Assembly: GCA_965116415.1 (NCBI GenBank)
Contig: OZ220693.1
Span: forward strand, 1,580,753-1,644,752
Reading direction: 5' to 3'
DNA from: Dehalococcoidia bacterium
GTDB lineage: Bacteria; Chloroflexota; Dehalococcoidia; Lucifugimonadales; UBA1123
Length of the DNA: 64,000 nt
Shown: positions 12,134 to 41,643 of the stretch, piece after piece
How positions within the stretch are numbered: position 1 is the stretch's first letter
How the letters are laid out: each line of letters starts with the position of its first letter
Translations under genes and position numbers: made by a program
Notes under the pieces: model-generated
Database searches by the model: none
The model's input: the letters and a program-made list of their open reading frames with translations, nothing else
Told to the model about the DNA's origin: nothing

Positions 12134-12643
12134 TCAGGAATCCCCAGCGGCAGAGGCCTGGCGCTGTCTGCTCTCCCGGTGTTTGATGAACGCCATGGCC
12201 TGGCGGACGCCCATGCGGCCGATTGGGCCTGAGGCGTACATGGAGCCGAAGACGACTCCGCGGCTTACGAGGAACTCCATGGGCTGGAGGTAGCGTCCGT
12301 GGGTCTTGTCCTCGGTCCACCACGGGGCGAGGGCGGCCACGGTCTCTTCAGTGACACCGTAGGCAATCGGGAAGGTGAGCCCCTCTTCCTCAGCCATTTT
12401 CGCGGCTGTATCGCGGTCCTCGACGGTCGCGCCGATTACGGTCAATCCCATCTCGTCGAGTTCTTCGAGGCTTCTCTGGTAGGTGGCCAACTGCCGCCTG
12501 CAGTACGGTCACCACTCGCCCCTGTAGAACAGCAGCGCGAGGTAGCGGCTGGGGACCTCACTGGGCAGCGTCATGGTCGAGCCGTCTATGAGGTCGAGTT
12601 TGATCTTGGGGAAGCGGTCTCCCTGTACCAGCTTTTCGGTCAT
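12134..12643 (-). CDS. Peroxiredoxin/redoxin-fold selenoprotein (UxxC), in-frame UGA at 12509-12511
   Basis: ATG at 12643 follows AGGAGG. Translation: MTEKLVQGDRFPKIKLDLIDGSTMTLPSEVPSRYLALLFYRGEW-UGA-PYCRRQLATYQRS, running in frame into ORF 12134..12490. The UGA occupies the first Cys of the WCPxC redox motif. Confidence 0.8.
12490..12504 (-). other. Candidate SECIS-like hairpin ACUGC-AGGCG-GCAGU just downstream of the UGA
   Basis: 5-bp stem and a GG-containing loop, starting 5 nt after the UGA. It is short, so only suggestive. Confidence 0.35.
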
Positions 12644-12731
12644 GGTGGTCCTCCTTTGTGATCTTTCGGGAAGTTTAACCTATTCTGGGTACAGGGGTGA
12701 GGGCCCGATACAGGGACTGCACGGGGGCGGT

Positions 12732-25968: not shown

Positions 25969-26850
25969 TCAGTTCACGCGCACGTACTTGTCCACGCTCT
26001 GGGCTATTGTAAGTCCGAGATAGATGTCGCCCTGGGAGTCGACCCATAGGCCGTGGGCGTGGCGGTGCAGATTCCAGCGCGCCAGCACCTCGCCGTTGCC
26101 GTCCCGGATGGCGACGCGAGAGGGATTTCCGTCGGCCGCCTGCTCACAGATGTAGAAGAGGCCGTCCGGGCCCTGAGAAATGTCGTTCGGCCCACCCATG
26201 CCGGTCCACTCGGTGATGAACTCGCCTTCGCTGTCGAATATCTGGATGCGGCGATTGGCGCGGTCGCAGACGTAGACCTTCTCGTCTGCATCCACCATCA
26301 GGCTGTGCGGCAGGTGGAACTCACCCGGCTCTGAGCTCCCCGGCGTACCCCAGGACTTGATTAGATCGCCCCCGCCGGTGAACTTGTGAATCCGGCTGTT
26401 TCGATAGCCGTCGGAGACGTAGATGTTGCCGGAGGGGCCCTTCACCATCTCTGTGGGATAGTTGAAAGGCCCGGCGGCGCGGGGGACCATGTCACCGGGT
26501 CCCTCACAGCCGGTGTCGGAGTGAACGCCCCGATCTCCCAGCACCATCAGAGGGCGGCCCTCCAGGGTGTATGACATCGCTACGGAGTCGTCACGATCAG
26601 TCAGGTAAATGACATCGTCGCTGATGCTCATGCCGTGCGGCGAATTGATATTGCCGTGTCCCCAGGCGTCCAGGTAGTTGCCCTCCCTGTCGAAGACGAC
26701 TACGGGCGGGTCGGTCCGCTGGAAGACGTAGAGCCTGTCCTGCGAGTCGGTAGCGACGGTGCTGACTACGTCGAACGCCTCGCCGTCGGGGAGCTTGGGG
26801 AAATCCTGGGCAAGTTCGAAAGTGAGGGTATCTGTGCCAACAGAAGTCAT
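25969..26850 (-). CDS. NHL-repeat beta-propeller, peptidyl-alpha-hydroxyglycine-lyase-like
   Basis: Repeats such as NIYVSDGYRNSRIHKF and KVYVCDRANRRIQIFD, plus GEFHLPHSL. Confidence 0.8.
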   Translation of the reverse strand: MTSVGTDTLTFELAQDFPKLPDGEAFDVVSTVATDSQDRLYVFQRTDPPVVVFDREGNYLDAWGHGNINSPHGMSISDDVIYLTDRDDSVAMSYTLEGRPLMVLGDRGVHSDTGCEGPGDMVPRAAGPFNYPTEMVKGPSGNIYVSDGYRNSRIHKFTGGGDLIKSWGTPGSSEPGEFHLPHSLMVDADEKVYVCDRANRRIQIFDSEGEFITEWTGMGGPNDISQGPDGLFYICEQAADGNPSRVAIRDGNGEVLARWNLHRHAHGLWVDSQGDIYLGLTIAQSVDKYVRVN

Positions 26851-27019: not shown

Positions 27020-27547
27020 ATGGAGACCTACATGACGACTGACATTCCTCACGAGGTACATGGTGACGAACTTCCAAAGCGGGTGACGCGACGCACGGTC
27101 GCGGTTGACTGCGAGCACGTCGAGAAGATGCTGCACAAGGGGACTCGCGAACAGTTCGTGATCTACTGCGACGAGCCGGAGAGGATGGGCGGAGAGGACG
27201 CCTATCCCCCACCGCTGACCTACATCACCTCCGGCATCGGGTTTTGACTGCTTACCCAGTTGAAGCGGTACGCTACAATGAGAAAACTCCCGATCACCAA
27301 GGCCCGAGTCCACGTCGAGATGGACTACTACCTGTCTGGCTCAGTGCTTGCCGGAACCGTCACCAGCGGGGTTACAGAGGTGCGCTCCGAGTTCGAGGTG
27401 ACCTCCGACGCTCCTGAGGAAGAGGTAGCCTACGTCATCCGGCTCGCGAAGCAGGGCTGCTTCGCCGAGAGGCTTGTCGAGACCGCCGTGCCCATCAAGA
27501 GCACGCTCAAGCTCAACGGCAAAGAGGCGACAAGCCGCCTGGAGTGA
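27020..27547 (+). CDS. OsmC-family selenoprotein, in-frame UGA at 27245-27247
   Basis: ORFs 27020..27247 and 27260..27547 are in the same frame. The joined reading is AYPPPLTYITSGIGF-UGA-LLTQLKRYA. That is the position of the first conserved OsmC/Ohr Cys, and the second conserved Cys is present (AKQGCFAERL). Confidence 0.75.
27250..27273 (+). other. Candidate SECIS-like stem-loop after the OsmC UGA
   Basis: Hand-folded pairs: G50-C73, C51-G72, U53-A70, A54-U69, C55-G68, C56-G67, C57-G65, with loop AGUUGAA. Imperfect and close to the UGA. Confidence 0.3.
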
Positions 27548-27785: not shown

Positions 27786-29189
27786 ATGCACATGTCCAGC
27801 AACGAACTATCACATATGGCGCACCTCATGCGGAGGGCCGGATTTGGGGCCACGAGGGATGAGCTCGAGCGTCGCGTCGCCGCGGGGTACGAGGCGACCG
27901 TCGAGGACCTGCTCCATCCGGAGAACCAGGAGCCGGTGGACATCTACCAGTTCCTGCGCTACTACCACTTCCAGTGGAAGCCCGGCACCCTGGGGGGCAT
28001 CGGGCAGTCCGGGTGGGTTTGGCGCATGATCAACACGAAGGCGCCGCTCCAGGAGAAGATGTGCCTGTTCTGGCACCAGATCTTCGCGACAGGCGTCTCG
28101 AAGGTCGATCACTACGACGAGATTACCGACATGATCGACATCTTCCGGGAGAAGGGACTGGGGAAGTACAGGGACCTGCTGCTGGACGTCTCCAGGAATC
28201 CAGCGATGCTGTACTGGCTGGACAACCACGAGAACCACGCCACGGCGATCAACGAGAACTGGGGCCGCGAGCTTCTCGAGCTGTTCACGATGGGAGTCGG
28301 CAACTACACGGAAGAGGACGTGTACGAGTGCTCCCGCGCCTTCACAGGCTGGACGATGACGCCCAAGCTGCCGAGGTTCCACATGGGACGCTGGGACTGG
28401 TACTTCGAGTACCGGCCTGACGACCACGACGAGGGTGAGAAGAACTTCCTGGGCCACACCGGCAACTTCAACGGCGAGGACATCATAGACATCGTGCTCG
28501 CCCATCCTGCCACGGCGAGGTTCATCGCGCGGCACCTGTACAACTTCTTCGTCGCCGACGAGGTACAGGTACCGGCATGGGAGCATACGCCGCCACGGGA
28601 TCCAGAGGCCATAGAGATCATCGCCAACGCGCTCACAGAATCGGACTTCGACATACGCCATACGCTGCGCGTGCTGTTCAACTCCGACTTCTTCAAGGAT
28701 GCCCAGTTCACCAAGGTCAAGAACCCGACCGAGGTGGTCATCGGCACGATGAGAATGGTCGGCGGCGGCGAGCTAGCCGGTCCCGAGATATTCGAGTACT
28801 CCAACCACATCACCTACATGGGACAGGAGCTGCTCAATCCGCCGAGCGTGGAGGGATGGCACTCTGGTGTGGAGTGGATCAACAGCGGCTCGCTGATGAA
28901 GCGCGCCAACTTCGTAGCCGACAGGGTCAGCGAGTTAGACCGCCCAGGAGTCAGCGCGATCATCGAGCGAGTGAAGTCCTCAGGCGCGTCGCCGGAGTCG
29001 GCCGTCGACACGTGCCTCGACCTTCTCGGGCCGGTCGTCGTCAAGGACGAGACCCGCGACGAGCTGATAGAGCACGCGTCGGCGCACGGCGATCTCGTCT
29101 GGGATGAGAACAATGAGGCGAAATCGGCACGGCGCGTGGCGGAGCTGCTTCAGCTTATCGTGGCCACTAGGGAGTACCAGTTCGCGTAA
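27786..29189 (+). CDS. DUF1800-family protein (intact paralog)
   Basis: AHLMRRAGFGAT, FWHQIFATG, NENWGRELLELFTMGVGNYTEEDV and GWT motifs; ends REYQFA. Confidence 0.85.
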   Translation: MHMSSNELSHMAHLMRRAGFGATRDELERRVAAGYEATVEDLLHPENQEPVDIYQFLRYYHFQWKPGTLGGIGQSGWVWRMINTKAPLQEKMCLFWHQIFATGVSKVDHYDEITDMIDIFREKGLGKYRDLLLDVSRNPAMLYWLDNHENHATAINENWGRELLELFTMGVGNYTEEDVYECSRAFTGWTMTPKLPRFHMGRWDWYFEYRPDDHDEGEKNFLGHTGNFNGEDIIDIVLAHPATARFIARHLYNFFVADEVQVPAWEHTPPRDPEAIEIIANALTESDFDIRHTLRVLFNSDFFKDAQFTKVKNPTEVVIGTMRMVGGGELAGPEIFEYSNHITYMGQELLNPPSVEGWHSGVEWINSGSLMKRANFVADRVSELDRPGVSAIIERVKSSGASPESAVDTCLDLLGPVVVKDETRDELIEHASAHGDLVWDENNEAKSARRVAELLQLIVATREYQFA

Positions 29190-29220
29190 TCTGCCTGGCT
29201 GTCGTTCTGGCCACATTATG

Positions 29221-29283
29221 CCCCCTCTCCCTTGAGGGAGAGGATTGGGGTCGTGGATGCGCCGTGGCGTGTGAGGGTGAAAA
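29221..29283 (-). repeat. REP-like element, family A, reverse orientation with an enlarged spacer
   Basis: CCCCCTCTCCCTTGAGGGAGAGG...GTGAGGGTGAAAAG. It lies in the DUF1800-NHL intergenic region, which is absent from the 1386-1462 counterpart. Confidence 0.8.
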
Positions 29284-29324
29284 GCCCTTCGTAGGAACCT
29301 ACCAGGAATCATCCGCCACCCTCT

Positions 29325-29350
29325 GGATTCCCGCTTTCGCGGGAATGACG
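29325..29350. repeat. REP-like element, family C (GGATTCCCGCTTTCGCGGGAATGACG)
   Basis: 8-bp stem ATTCCCGC/GCGGGAAT. A degenerate half copy lies at 7198-7216. Confidence 0.75.
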
Positions 29351-29373
29351 AATTAACCCAAGGAATCTGCAAA

Positions 29374-30381
29374 ATGATGCTAACGAAGATAGTTGGAGAA
29401 CGAGTCTACGACTTCAGCCACGTGGTGGGCGGTCGCGACCAGGTTATGGGGCCGCTGGCGCTGGCGTTCGGCCGGGACAACGAGATGTATGCCGTCGTGT
29501 CTGCCCTTGGCGGCGGACGCGGAATAACGAAGTACACGGTCGGGCTCTACCCGGGCGAGGAAGAGCTGGTCCAGCGCATCGGGGAGTCCGGCGAAGGTCC
29601 GGGACAGCTGATGTGGACCTCTGGCATCGCGCTCGACTCGGACTACAACATCTACGTCACAGATGCCATGACCGATCGGATATCTGTGTTCTCGGAGGGC
29701 GGCGACTTCATCCGCTCATTCGGTTCATCTGGAGACGGCGAGGGCCAGTTCGGAAGGCCGTCGGGCATCACAGTCGACCAGGACGACAACCTGCTGGTCG
29801 TCGACACCCTCAACCACCGGGTGCAGAAGCTCGACCGCGATGGCCGCTACCTGTCCGAGTGGGGCAGCGAAGGGTCGGCTCCCGGCCAGTTCAGGTCTCC
29901 CTGGGGCATCACTACGGACGCCGACGGCTGCATCTACGTCGCCGATCACCTGAACCATCGCATCCAGAAGTTCGACGCGGATGCCGGCTTCATGTTCGAG
30001 CTCGGCAGTCACGGCTCGGGCGACTACGAGTTCGATCACCCGTCGGATGTCGCCATAGACCCGGACGGGGACATCTACGTGTGCGACTGGGCCAACCACA
30101 GGGTCCAGGCATACACCGCCGACGGTGAATACGTCACGACGTTCATCGGCGACGCTCAGGAGCTGTCGAAGTGGCAGTTGGAGTACGTCCGCTCCAACCC
30201 AGACGTGTACAAGGCGCGACGCCGGGTCTACACGCTGGAGCCGGAATGGCGCTTCGCCCTGCCGTCAGCGGTCGCGTTCGACAGTCGCAACTCGAGGCTG
30301 ATGGTGGCCGACACCCAACGCTGGCGCATCCAGATCTACAACAAGCTCCACGACTACGCCGACCCGCAGTTTAATATTTGA
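29374..30381 (+). CDS. NHL-repeat six-bladed beta-propeller protein (paralog of 1463..2473)
   Basis: Same repeat architecture and C-terminus as the first copy. Confidence 0.85.
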   Translation: MMLTKIVGERVYDFSHVVGGRDQVMGPLALAFGRDNEMYAVVSALGGGRGITKYTVGLYPGEEELVQRIGESGEGPGQLMWTSGIALDSDYNIYVTDAMTDRISVFSEGGDFIRSFGSSGDGEGQFGRPSGITVDQDDNLLVVDTLNHRVQKLDRDGRYLSEWGSEGSAPGQFRSPWGITTDADGCIYVADHLNHRIQKFDADAGFMFELGSHGSGDYEFDHPSDVAIDPDGDIYVCDWANHRVQAYTADGEYVTTFIGDAQELSKWQLEYVRSNPDVYKARRRVYTLEPEWRFALPSAVAFDSRNSRLMVADTQRWRIQIYNKLHDYADPQFNI

Positions 30382-39274: not shown

Positions 39275-40570
39275 CTAAGTTGCTTCTGCCATTTCCACCA
39301 CAGCGTCCTCCACTCTCAGTACGGCAAGCTGGACCTGCCTAAGGTCATGGACAACGGCGGCAATCGAGTCAATATCAGTGTTCCCTATAGCCGTATCAAG
39401 TTCATTGAACTTCGCACCAAAATCTCGGAGGGCTAGAACAATCTCGTGGAGTCTCACTCCTAGCGAGTATCTCCTATTTAGGTGAAATTCCCTGCTTAGT
39501 GTCGATAAGGCTCTCATCTTCTCATCGATTTGCTCAAACCTCAGCTTGAGAGCCTCACGAATTGAACGTAGATCTGCGAGAGGAATATTGGGGCCGATCG
39601 GCTCAATTATCTGAAGTGTCTCGTTGACGAACTGCTTGATTCCTATCGACCCGAGCTTGGAGACAAACTCCCGCCGCAAGGGCCCTACCACGTCGTCGGG
39701 AAGGCTGGTGATCCTGCGAATCTGGAATAATCTGTTGGCGTCAACTTCTCCGAACAGTTCAAATTCGATGCCAATCAGCTGCTTCGCCGGAAAACGCATC
39801 ACATCCCGCTTGGTTTCACCTGGCTGAAGAGTGCCTATTTCTGTCCTGTATCGCCCCGCAGCTTCTATGACGACGGAGTTGAACCACACGTCTGGCCAGT
39901 CCGCACGATCCGGTGCGGTGTTATGAACCGTAAGCGTGACCTCTGCGTTCCCATCTGTACCCTCATCCGGCATCCTCACTGTCTTCTCCAAGACCAAGCA
40001 GGACTGTAATATCCGCCACAGATCGGATGTCGGAGTAGGAGCCTCCTGAACCTCTACACCGCGCTCGGGATGGTCGAACTCGTCCATGGGGTCTTCTTCC
40101 TCCACACTACTGGAATCTCCTTCCAACTCATTACTCATCGTCTCGATTTCCAAGGCCTCATCGCAGCTCAGAGCCGTGAGGATACGTCTCATTTGCTCTG
40201 CTGCCCTTCTCGCACGTGCCAAAGAAATGTTGTCTAGGTGTGCCCAGTCATTCCGTATGGCTGTCAACCGCCGGAGTTCCTCAGATGTCCTTACCGTGTC
40301 CCTAAAAGCATCTGAAAACACGTTGGAGTTTCGGCCAATGATGCGCATGAAGTGAGGAGCGTCCAAAAGGAGGTGCCGATCACGAGCTGGGTCTCTTTCG
40401 AAGTGTGGCTTCAGAGCTTCCAGTTGGGCTTCCGTTAAGGATCTCTCCACTCCATTCTGCCACCAGTCATCCCCATGTTCGCCGACCAAGCGTTCGTAAA
40501 TCGCTCTCCTGACTCCTGTTATGTAGAGAACATGGCATCGCGTGAAGAACATATAGACATCCAAGTTCAA
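39275..40570 (-). CDS. Swt1-like HEPN domain protein with an uncharacterised C-terminal two-thirds
   Basis: N-terminal GDDWWQNGV...LTAIRNDWAHL (RNxxAH fits Rx4H). It continues with an acidic linker, a beta-rich middle and a helical C-terminus. Lower GC. Confidence 0.6.
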   Translation of the reverse strand: MNLDVYMFFTRCHVLYITGVRRAIYERLVGEHGDDWWQNGVERSLTEAQLEALKPHFERDPARDRHLLLDAPHFMRIIGRNSNVFSDAFRDTVRTSEELRRLTAIRNDWAHLDNISLARARRAAEQMRRILTALSCDEALEIETMSNELEGDSSSVEEEDPMDEFDHPERGVEVQEAPTPTSDLWRILQSCLVLEKTVRMPDEGTDGNAEVTLTVHNTAPDRADWPDVWFNSVVIEAAGRYRTEIGTLQPGETKRDVMRFPAKQLIGIEFELFGEVDANRLFQIRRITSLPDDVVGPLRREFVSKLGSIGIKQFVNETLQIIEPIGPNIPLADLRSIREALKLRFEQIDEKMRALSTLSREFHLNRRYSLGVRLHEIVLALRDFGAKFNELDTAIGNTDIDSIAAVVHDLRQVQLAVLRVEDAVVEMAEAT

Positions 40571-40773
40571 GGAGACACCTCTTGCTAGCTGGTCACACTA
40601 ATTTGGTGCTGGGCCATAGTGTATACCTACTTCAGGATCGCTCAACCGTGGTTGCCGGCTCTCCAACAGCTTAAGGGATGTAACGGCTAAGAAGAACTCG
40701 GCCAAATGCCACAGTTCCCCATCTCTATGTCACTGGGACTTGCGCATGACGGCCTGAAATATTGGCTGTCAGT

Positions 40774-41643
40774 TCATCCGTCGCTCTCCTGTGTGGCTCG
40801 CCACAGGTAGCTCGCAAACGAAGCGCAGACACCAAGCATAAACACTGCCTCGTCTCGTCCCGAGGGTGAAGCCGAGTGGTCCAACAAGGCGTGGCGGATT
40901 CCCTCCTCATCCGATGTGTATCCGTAGAGTTTACTGAAAGCATCCTTTAGCGCCGGATGAATGTGCTTTCTTTCTTCGAGCGACTTCAAAGCTGGTGCTA
41001 ATGTACTGGCTGATTCTGGAGCCAGCGTACGCGCTACGGATTCAACAGAGTGAATGCTCTCTCTAATTGACCCTGGCCAGTCGCCTTGATTTATCAGCTC
41101 TGTCGCTTTCCGGAGATGTGTTCTCGCTCCATCAAGGCCCGTCTCACTTAACGTGTGCATAGCGTCCGTGATTGCTTCACCTTCCTGCCAAGTGGCCATG
41201 GGGAAAATGGTAGGAGGCCCATTCGTGTCCACGCAGTAAGCCAACTGACAGTATTCAAATAGGGCTTTTACTTCGACGGTGAATTCAGATGGGCATTTTG
41301 GATGACGCATGATGATCTGTAGTACATCGAATACCTTGTTGAATTCTAAGTCCTCTAGTATTTGATACCTGTAGATGCCAAGGAATTCATCTATTGTGCC
41401 TCTGAATTCCTCTAGTGGTATCTCTAGAAACTCCCGATGCAGTTCCGCTGCTATTGCCCTCCAATTAACTCCTAAGTGGCCACCTCCAGAGGATCTACGT
41501 AAATATATATACAGCAAATCCCATAGCCTGTGACGAGCATCAGAACTAAGTTCTTCAAGTGCTAGCGGACCAGGTAGACCCTCGTAGCCTTGGGCTTGCG
41601 AGAATGTGAGGTTTCTGGGATCAAGTCTCTCGTTATCTTGCAC
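40774..41643 (-). CDS. AbiJ-like protein (AbiJ N-terminal domain 4 plus HEPN-like C-terminus)
   Basis: N-terminal LTFSQAQGYEGLPGPLALEELSSDARHRLWDLLY. C-terminal SIRESIHSVESVAR...LYGYTSDEEGIRHAL. Confidence 0.55.
   Translation of the reverse strand: MQDNERLDPRNLTFSQAQGYEGLPGPLALEELSSDARHRLWDLLYIYLRRSSGGGHLGVNWRAIAAELHREFLEIPLEEFRGTIDEFLGIYRYQILEDLEFNKVFDVLQIIMRHPKCPSEFTVEVKALFEYCQLAYCVDTNGPPTIFPMATWQEGEAITDAMHTLSETGLDGARTHLRKATELINQGDWPGSIRESIHSVESVARTLAPESASTLAPALKSLEERKHIHPALKDAFSKLYGYTSDEEGIRHALLDHSASPSGRDEAVFMLGVCASFASYLWRATQESDG

Follow-up and report, generated by a model that had tools for sequence, protein, structure and literature searches.

A probable Prx-like UxxC selenoprotein gene, split at its in-frame UGA by gene callers, in a Dehalococcoidia bacterium

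When a TGA codon stands in the middle of a redoxin-type gene, exactly where related proteins have an active-site cysteine, is it a stop, or is it decoded as selenocysteine (Sec, U)? The question is raised by a locus in a stretch of 64,000 nucleotides (nt) from a Dehalococcoidia bacterium (assembly GCA_965116415.1, contig OZ220693.1, positions 1,580,753 to 1,644,752 of the forward strand), which, at its full length, is referred to here as the window and to which all positions below refer. The locus, at positions 12643 to 12134, is very probably a single minus-strand gene that encodes Sec, its product being a peroxiredoxin (Prx)-like protein with the active-site motif UxxC. The features on which this reading is built are as follows.

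12134 to 12643, minus strand: complete coding sequence of the predicted Prx-like selenoprotein, 169 residues (44, then Sec, then 124) plus the stop, active site W-U-P-Y-C
12650 to 12655, minus strand: Shine-Dalgarno sequence AGGAGG, read directly, 6 nt before the ATG at 12643-12641
12509 to 12511, minus strand: in-frame UGA, predicted Sec45, first position of UxxC (153 of 160 related loci have TGA, and all 23 full-length homologues have Cys)
12500 to 12502, minus strand: TGC, Cys48, second residue of UxxC, as aligned by phmmer with the structures 5xbs and 2e2g, a column that is invariant in the family
12136 to 12134, minus strand: TGA, the stop codon of the gene, read directly
12134 to 12490, minus strand: spurious open reading frame (ORF) of 118 residues in the ORF list, whose TTG "start" is the codon for Leu52 of the real protein

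As to the reading frame, a preliminary description of this DNA had placed a good start (AGGAGG, then ATG at 12643) ahead of 44 codons running in frame into TGA-CCG-TAC-TGC, giving W-U-P-Y-C, and had remarked that the ORF track holds only the C-terminal 118 residues. The sequence agrees on all of this, and in the mechanically produced ORF list the gene appears only as two separate pieces, of 44 and 118 residues. The 5' ORF of 44 codons translates as MTEKLVQGDRFPKIKLDLIDGSTMTLPSEVPSRYLALLFYRGEW, ending in ...YLALLFYRGEW at the TGA at 12511-12509, and the same frame then continues through CCG TAC TGC and a further 121 sense codons to the stop. When the pieces are joined, with U entered as C, the protein of 169 residues matches the Pfam families AhpC/TSA (PF00578, 8.7e-18, 64.9 bits against a cut-off of 26) and Redoxin (PF08534, 1.8e-13), and the tblastn matches in related genomes span residues 1-169. 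The assertion that TGA is a normal stop of the neighbouring genes, and that the genome is therefore not a recoded one, is likewise borne out, since TGA is the commonest ordinary stop among the long ORFs of the window (21 of 46) and also terminates the selenoprotein gene itself.

The argument for Sec starts from what related sequences have in the UGA column. A protein homologue search was carried out against 5.8 billion proteins, and the best 120 homologues were examined. The closest protein relatives among these (60-95% identity) are all of 93-122 residues and share one internal start position, while the full-length relatives that were aligned, of 167-177 residues and 48-58% identity, have Cys in the UGA column in every case (W-C-P-Y-C; 23 of 23). 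Two sets of related loci were compared at the DNA level. One comprises 80 species-representative genomes, all of them metagenome-assembled genomes (MAGs) of Dehalococcoidia or Chloroflexota, found by tblastn across the stop, and here the column reads TGA in 77 loci, TGT in two and TCA (Ser) in one. The other comprises 80 metagenome loci (L081-L160) from a scan seeded with the Cys-type alignment, of which 76 have TGA and four a Cys codon. For all 160 related loci the count is thus 153 TGA, six Cys codons and one Ser codon, a recurrence at one column that goes far beyond chance and gives the classic Sec/Cys signature. Cys in this column, in the 23 full-length proteins and the six Cys-codon loci, is what the preliminary description had expected of an alignment of the joined translation, and its concern that other assemblies might carry a sense codon or a decayed gene is not realised as a pattern, with TGA in 153 of the 160 loci and both sides conserved.

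Nine of the related loci (L049, L087, L088, L089, L091, L095, L096, L115, and L117) contain the Prx-like gene in duplicate. In L049 the copies are in tandem, with a Sec-type one (W-U-P-Y-C, 2587) immediately upstream of the Ser-type one (W-S-P-Y-C, TCA, 3124), and the lone Ser case is therefore a paralogue beside the Sec form and not an orthologous replacement of it. Judging by contig names, the metagenome matches to this subfamily come mainly from marine samples.

Both sides of the TGA have the marks of translated sequence. No other stop is found in the 42 codons upstream of the TGA in any of the 80 genome loci, the ratio of nonsynonymous to synonymous polymorphism (pN/pS) across these loci is 0.36 upstream and 0.44 downstream, and variation upstream is mainly at third positions (third-position entropy, 1.44). 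The absence of stops, the low pN/pS and this entropy indicate that selection acts on the N-terminal piece and that it is translated. The related genes terminate in TGA, TAG, or TAA, and with TGA also the commonest stop of the window, UGA has two meanings here. For practical purposes, this comparison of DNA across loci rules out that the locus is a pseudogene or a pair of independent genes, that the TGA is an error of sequencing, and that the code has been reassigned.

A Sec-encoding UGA in Bacteria would be accompanied by a selenocysteine insertion sequence (SECIS) in the messenger RNA, and two hairpins compete for this role downstream of the UGA.

12481 to 12499, minus strand: hairpin H2, the best SECIS candidate; stem of 12499-12493 with 12487-12481, with one C-A mismatch, and loop AGUUG at 12492-12488
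12484 to 12514, minus strand: hairpin H1, which includes the hairpin noted earlier; upper stem of 12504-12500 with 12494-12490, and loop AGGCG at 12499-12495

That the RNA in this zone is under selection of its own is suggested by codon usage and by folding energies, for which 129 unique Sec-type sequences were compared with a Cys-type control of only six, since the metagenome scan, even with a Cys query, yielded 76 Sec-type against four Cys-type loci. Third-position entropy falls to 0.85 over the 12 codons after the UGA, versus 1.44 upstream and 1.60 further downstream. In the Sec-type sequences the post-UGA Leu codon is TTG or TTA in 89% (background, 16%), Gln is CAG in 98% (68%), Arg is CGG in 71% (25%), and Ala is GCC in 78% (46%), while five of the six Cys-type genes use CTC for the same Leu. 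Set against synonymous-codon shuffles, the post-UGA zone gains 3.8 kcal/mol in stability (z averages -1.38 and is negative in 96% of sequences), versus z of about 0 for two control zones in the same genes, and the energies of H1 and H2, which are -11.5 and -9.9 in Sec-type genes, are only -3.0 and -4.1 in the Cys-type. Both the synonymous constraint and the RNA stability after the UGA are thus specific to the Sec-type genes.

Which of the two hairpins would be recognised by SelB? According to the published model of the bacterial SECIS, the loop is of 3-9 nt, with a G in its first two positions followed by G or U, the spacing from the UGA is 16-37 nt, and the minimum free energy (MFE) is -7.5 or lower (PMC13188914). 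H2 agrees with this model: its loop is of 5 nt and begins 16 nt past the UGA, loop position 2 is a G, located 18 nt past the UGA and followed by U, the stem is of 3+3(+3) base pairs with a single mismatch, three further pairs extending it to 12503-12476, and its energy in the window is -10.5 kcal/mol. An energy of -7.5 or lower is found for H2 in 75% of the 129 unique Sec-type sequences. H2 also covaries, in that pairs 23-39 to 27-35 are paired in 75.5% versus 62.8 +/- 1.1% in shuffles (0 of 2000), with pair 24-38 distributed as GC 61, CG 25, UA 9, and UG 7, and the covariation also holds inside the majority clade. Finally, H2 has in common with the SECIS of an AhpD-like gene of the same window, described below, the loop motif A-G-U-U and the distance of 18 nt from the UGA to the G. 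A SECIS-like element after 12509, which the preliminary description had proposed to seek with a predictor, is accordingly present, as an element that fits the published model and covaries.

Several observations weigh against the SECIS assignment, or against H2 as its bearer. The spacing of H2, 16 nt, is the lower limit of the model, and the copy in the window has the C-A mismatch. Phylogeny is left uncorrected in the shuffle tests of covariation. In 16 of the 129 sequences, which form a minority clade with AGC following the UGA, H2 is weak (-4.8 kcal/mol, loop AGCUA) and H1 is the stronger hairpin (-9.7). A scan of the window against Rfam at gathering thresholds gave no match, and neither of the hairpins, taken as a single sequence, is significant against dinucleotide shuffles (z = -0.32 and -1.21). 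Such single-sequence shuffles are uninformative, and for this reason the synonymous-codon shuffles and the comparison of Sec-type with Cys-type genes were used in their place.

The alternative that fares best is the one closest to the original proposal, that the SelB-binding SECIS is H1 (12504-12490, loop AGGCG). The upper hairpin of H1, ACUGC-AGGCG-GCAGU, is supplemented by a lower stem in which UGGU at 12514-12511, which takes in the U of the UGA, pairs with 12487-12484, and together these form the MFE structure, of -16.0 kcal/mol, which is mutually exclusive with H2. H1 is extremely well kept, with 95.8% of cells paired among 74 sequences, positions 2 and 3 of its loop are both G, it is the sole strong hairpin in the AGC clade, and some bacterial SECIS elements are off the consensus model (review, PMC13188914). 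RNAalifold likewise chooses H1 with its lower stem, with zero compensatory pairs, a choice that is not decisive. Against these points, the loop of H1 begins 9 nt after the UGA, closer than the 16-37 nt that the model requires, and its 5' arm is only 4 nt past the UGA, in the zone that would be unwound by a ribosome with the UGA in its A site, if the unwinding of the lower SECIS helix by the ribosome, which has been described (PMC13188914), applies here. The high pairing of H1 comes with no compensatory changes, and much of the complementarity follows from the fixed residues Tyr-Cys...Arg-Gln. When the UGA-containing stem is excluded, H2 is the more stable in the majority clade, to which the window sequence belongs (-10.5 versus -7.1), and it is H2 that shares the loop motif and the spacing of the SECIS in the AhpD-like gene. 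Overall, H1 in the role of the SECIS appears unlikely, at perhaps one chance among several, and we infer that the SelB-binding element is most probably H2, because H2 fits the published model while H1 fails on spacing, because it covaries, and because of the motif and spacing common to it and the AhpD-like SECIS. Of the earlier proposal concerning the small hairpin at 12490-12504, what stands is the existence of the hairpin; its part as the SECIS is unlikely, given the loop at 9 nt, the lack of covariation and the better fit of the overlapping H2.

A further reading would give a role to both hairpins, as a ribosome-actuated switch: the UGA, together with the 5' arm of H2, would stay hidden in H1 until the approaching ribosome melts it, after which the AGUUG loop would be presented to SelB. 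Alternatively, the AGC clade might use a non-canonical SECIS with its loop about 10 nt from the UGA. Either is a speculative and rather improbable proposition, but, if true, it would mean a new class of bacterial SECIS geometry in a known family.

With H2 as the preferred element, the decoding step can be worded as follows. The UGA at 12511-12509 would be decoded as Sec by SelB with Sec-tRNA(Sec), under the direction of a hairpin that the mRNA forms just downstream, within the coding sequence; this hairpin would be H2 (12499-12481, loop AGUUG, G 18 nt past the UGA), and H1, being 5'-proximal and including the UGA itself, would be unwound on arrival of the ribosome.

Could the UGA be read through as an amino acid other than Sec, either as Cys or Trp by near-cognate suppression or through a lineage-wide reassignment of UGA? 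What speaks for it, and against Sec, is that no part of the Sec machinery was encountered in the DNA at hand: the 64-kb window contains no selA, selB, or selD, as seen in a Pfam scan of 40 window ORFs, and no tRNA of any kind, tRNA-Sec included, by ARAGORN; the 698 kb of the window and related loci contain only tRNAs for Ser and Ala and no tRNA-Sec; and the flanks of the related loci, about 700 kb, are free of signature motifs of SelD, SelA, and SelB. For the window such absence is expected, as 64 kb are but a small part of a genome of roughly 3 Mb. Contradicting a non-Sec reading are the use of TGA as the ordinary stop, in 21 of the 46 long ORFs of the window and in the selenoprotein gene itself, the identity of the column as a redox Cys, the classic position of Sec/Cys exchange, and the selected RNA element, which follows the UGA in TGA-type genes only. 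To these are added the documented use of Sec in the lineage and two more genes of the window with UGA exactly at the catalytic Cys of known selenoprotein families. The latter were found by scanning the window for in-frame TGAs flanked by coding-like sequence.

34768 to 34211, minus strand: probable AhpD-like (CMD) selenoprotein of 185 residues, ECRF-U-TMAH (CxxU), TGA at 34576-34574, with a Pfam CMD match across the TGA
27020 to 27547, plus strand: probable OsmC-like selenoprotein of 175 residues, SGIGF-U-LLT (UxxT), TGA at 27245-27247, with a Pfam OsmC match across the TGA

In the AhpD-like protein, of which the ORF list has only a C-terminal part of 119 residues, U falls on the second Cys of the CxxC...H site in the solved AhpD-like structures 3c1l and 2pfx (E = 2e-25), and the UGA is followed by a SECIS in agreement with the published model, having a stem of 7 base pairs, a loop GUU closed by A-U, and the G 18 nt past the UGA. 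In the OsmC-like protein, U aligns with the conserved Cys of the OsmC-like structure 3cje (E = 2.3e-10); CCC-AGUUG-AAG is present downstream of the TGA, and a clear SECIS is not established there. Both AhpD-like proteins with CxxU and OsmC-like proteins with UxxT are catalogued selenoprotein families (PMC1088965, Table 3; PMC2398784, Table 2), and the former gene belongs to the known family AhpD-like 2 (pfam02627, CxxU). As to the lineage, two Dehalococcoidia MAGs, with 49 and 46 genes, are placed in the top ten bacteria for richness in selenoproteins by BSepDB, whose entry rule is that a species possess at least two Sec-pathway genes (PMC13326102), and the cultured Dehalogenimonas alkenigignens encodes selC, the genes for Sec synthesis, a Sec-specific elongation factor as well as SelD and FdhA that themselves contain Sec (PMC4918011). 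The two further window genes, together with this literature on the class, constitute strong indirect evidence for Sec decoding here, and we infer the presence of the Sec machinery in this particular genome. A non-Sec reading of the UGA is very unlikely.

The possibility of two products, a peptide of 44 residues released at the UGA and the C-terminal 118 residues translated from an internal start, gains some credit from the presence of both pieces in public annotation and from a possible TTG or ATG start for the 118-residue ORF in many relatives. This "start", however, is the conserved Leu of RRQL, which in 14 of the 129 unique sequences is encoded by CTA or CTG, neither of them a start codon, and it is preceded by no ribosome-binding site in the window sequence. 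The pieces are always in one frame with only the TGA between them, the Cys-type homologues are single chains of 167-177 residues, and the split would sever the redox motif as well as the fold's beta-alpha unit, all of which makes the two-product reading extremely improbable. That the gene is a pseudogene or a truncation, through a nonsense mutation at the catalytic Cys that leaves the 118-residue remnant or nothing at all, as the truncated products of gene callers and one truly degraded relative (L058) might suggest, has next to no probability given an identical TGA in 153 of 160 loci even as overall protein identity drops to about 50%, the lack of frameshifts and other stops, purifying selection on both halves (0.36 and 0.44), a synonymous-site constraint after the TGA that is unexpected of a dead gene, and loci that are not near-identical copies of one sequence (129 unique 63-mers). 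The degraded relative itself (L058:3133), which reads W-*-P-Y-Y, having lost the second Cys, and has a further stop 29 codons past the TGA, is probably a genuine pseudogene within the family.

What kind of protein does the gene encode? In a phmmer comparison with sequences of the Protein Data Bank (PDB), FYRGEW-C-PY-C-RRQL aligns with HPADF-T-PV-C-TTEF of archaeal peroxiredoxins (5xbs, 2e2g), so that Sec45 faces the conserved Thr of PxxxTxxC and Cys48 the peroxidatic Cys. As Sec is located at the Thr position of peroxiredoxins, it is to be viewed as the first residue of a thioredoxin-type CxxC and not as the peroxidatic Cys. The suggestion in the preliminary description that the UGA column is the peroxidatic/redox Cys is thus half right: a redox Cys it is, a peroxidatic one it is not. 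Of the four catalytic residues of peroxiredoxins, three are replaced according to the alignment (Pro by Arg41, Thr by Sec45, and Arg by Gln120), with only the Cys at the peroxidatic position, Cys48, kept, and for this reason the protein is not a peroxiredoxin sensu stricto. An AlphaFold2 model of a Cys-type homologue (P0017; pLDDT, the predicted local distance difference test, 83.7; pTM, the predicted template modeling score, 0.80) has position 45 directly before a helix of residues 46-57, and a Foldseek search with this model returned the Bcp/Prx6-type structures 3hjp, 6q5v, 3a2v, and 5ovq at template modeling (TM) scores of 0.72-0.76, followed by ResA at 0.61-0.66. The N-terminus, MTEKLVQGDRFPKIKLDLIDGS (also given as MTEKLVQGDRFPKIKLD...), has no hydrophobic segment, and the protein is therefore considered cytoplasmic. 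The picture is that of a peroxiredoxin fold with a thioredoxin-type U-x-x-C centre, and the original proposal of a UxxC selenoprotein of the AhpC/TSA-redoxin fold has held up, on the evidence of the Cys column, the conservation of the TGA and the SECIS-like element.

A catalytic cycle can be proposed with somewhat better than even confidence. Sec45, just before the first helix, would occupy the position of the attacking Cys in a thioredoxin-type CxxC; its selenolate would attack an oxidised substrate (a disulfide, sulfenate, or peroxide), a selenenylsulfide would form between Sec45 and Cys48, the presumed resolving partner, and re-reduction by a thioredoxin-like donor would complete the cycle.

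Is the family new? An earlier description of a Prx-like selenoprotein family is reportedly that of Kryukov and Gladyshev, from 2004. The Sargasso Sea survey describes such a family as having a thioredoxin-like UxxC in place of the TxxC or TxxU of peroxiredoxins (PMC1088965), the Global Ocean Sampling (GOS) survey lists "Prx-like 1, pfam00578, UxxC, 225 selenoproteins" (PMC2398784), and a 2026 review has "Prx-like thiol:disulfide oxidoreductase, PF00578, UxxC/UxxU" as a high-confidence prediction (PMC13188914). Reads labelled "#Prx-like 1" in Dataset S1 of the GOS survey contain LFYRGHWUPYCRRQL...IQPSEF...SPIGRM (PMC2398784), and the window protein matches two catalogued reads, JCVI_READ_1161201 with 40% identity (E = 4e-32) and JCVI_READ_286511 with 37% (E = 1e-30). 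By domain, motif and sequence similarity alike, the protein is to be classed with Prx-like 1, the known Prx-like thiol:disulfide oxidoreductase with UxxC. Common to both are the homology to PF00578, UxxC where peroxiredoxins have TxxC, Cys homologues with CxxC, and a UGA followed by a hairpin. Nothing categorical separates the two, save that identity between the Dehalococcoidia clade and the surface-ocean reads compared is only about 40%, and that the clade is nearly all Sec (153 TGA versus six Cys), while the broad Prx-like 1 family of the GOS survey has 225 Sec forms versus 2,740 Cys homologues (PMC2398784). The Sec form predominates in this clade, the opposite of the ratio in the broad family.

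Other relatives are more distant. PrxU of Eubacterium acidaminophilum (TxxU) has the same fold and Pfam family and is also a selenoprotein, but its Sec is at the peroxidatic Cys, while in the window protein Sec is three residues earlier and the Cys at the peroxidatic position is kept; identity with PrxU was rejected, with 15.7 bits for NCBIfam NF040737 versus a cut-off of 270. Bcp-PrxQ and canonical peroxiredoxins (3hjp, 5xbs, 2e2g, 3a2v) are the best structural matches and are alike in being cytoplasmic, in size and in the Cys at the peroxidatic position, but differ in that three of the four catalytic residues are replaced in the window protein, and identity is 16-24%. Proteins of the ResA/TlpA/DsbE type (4nmu, 3c71) share the W-C-x-x-C that opens helix 1 and give weak sequence matches (E of about 6e-4), but they are exported or membrane-anchored, and the C-terminal half of the window protein (HGxYxQPxE, MYASGPIGR) is of the Prx type; this identity was also rejected, there being no hydrophobic N-terminus and no NCBIfam model of the group reaching its cut-off. 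SelL and SelL-related proteins (UxxU, forming a diselenide) resemble the window protein in the Prx-like fold, in Sec as the first residue of an xCxxCx-type motif and in an aquatic distribution, and were rejected on 25.8 bits for NF040769 versus a cut-off of 120 and on the motif, which is UxxC and not UxxU. As no NCBIfam model scores above its cut-off with the joined protein, no curated name can be assigned.

The gene is, then, an ordinary representative of a selenoprotein family that was catalogued as such in 2005-2008, from a lineage already known to be rich in selenoproteins. The family, the UxxC motif and the relation to peroxiredoxins were described in 2004-2008, and knowledge of selenoproteins is not changed by this locus. 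Its main value is for annotation, as a real selenoprotein is split by standard gene callers: in a public assembly that contains the window's own locus (ENA ERZ25072184, contig_2, L161:2848-3357) the gene is divided into a piece of 44 residues with no Pfam match and one of 118 residues with a weak AhpC-TSA match, and 92 of the best 120 database homologues are truncations of 93-122 residues starting at the column of the 118-residue ORF. Mildly noteworthy are these split gene calls, the lack of an NCBIfam model for the clade, the near-exclusive Sec form and the two conserved alternative hairpins. The window also illustrates how selenoprotein-rich marine Dehalococcoidia are, with many of their redox proteins missing from protein databases, and the locus touches upon the questions of the substrate of Prx-like selenoproteins and of the variety of bacterial SECIS geometries.

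The genes around the locus, encoding a CehA/McbA-type PHP hydrolase, SBP_bac_3, AHSA1 and HlyD, are conserved in the four closest genomes only, and no function is therefore deduced from operon context. Elsewhere in the window, a pair of genes, the first encoding DUF1800 (PF08811, E of about 1e-100) and the second an NHL-repeat beta-propeller, is found twice, at 16-2473 and at 27786-30381, and a third NHL-repeat gene is found at 25969-26850. Two adjacent genes on the minus strand, at 39275-41643, have a low GC content at third codon positions, 0.58 and 0.48 versus about 0.75 for most genes of the window; their domains are of the defence or abortive-infection type (HEPN_Swt1 at 39275-40570, and AbiJ_NTD4, below the Pfam cut-off, at 40774-41643), and the pair may represent a horizontally acquired defence islet.

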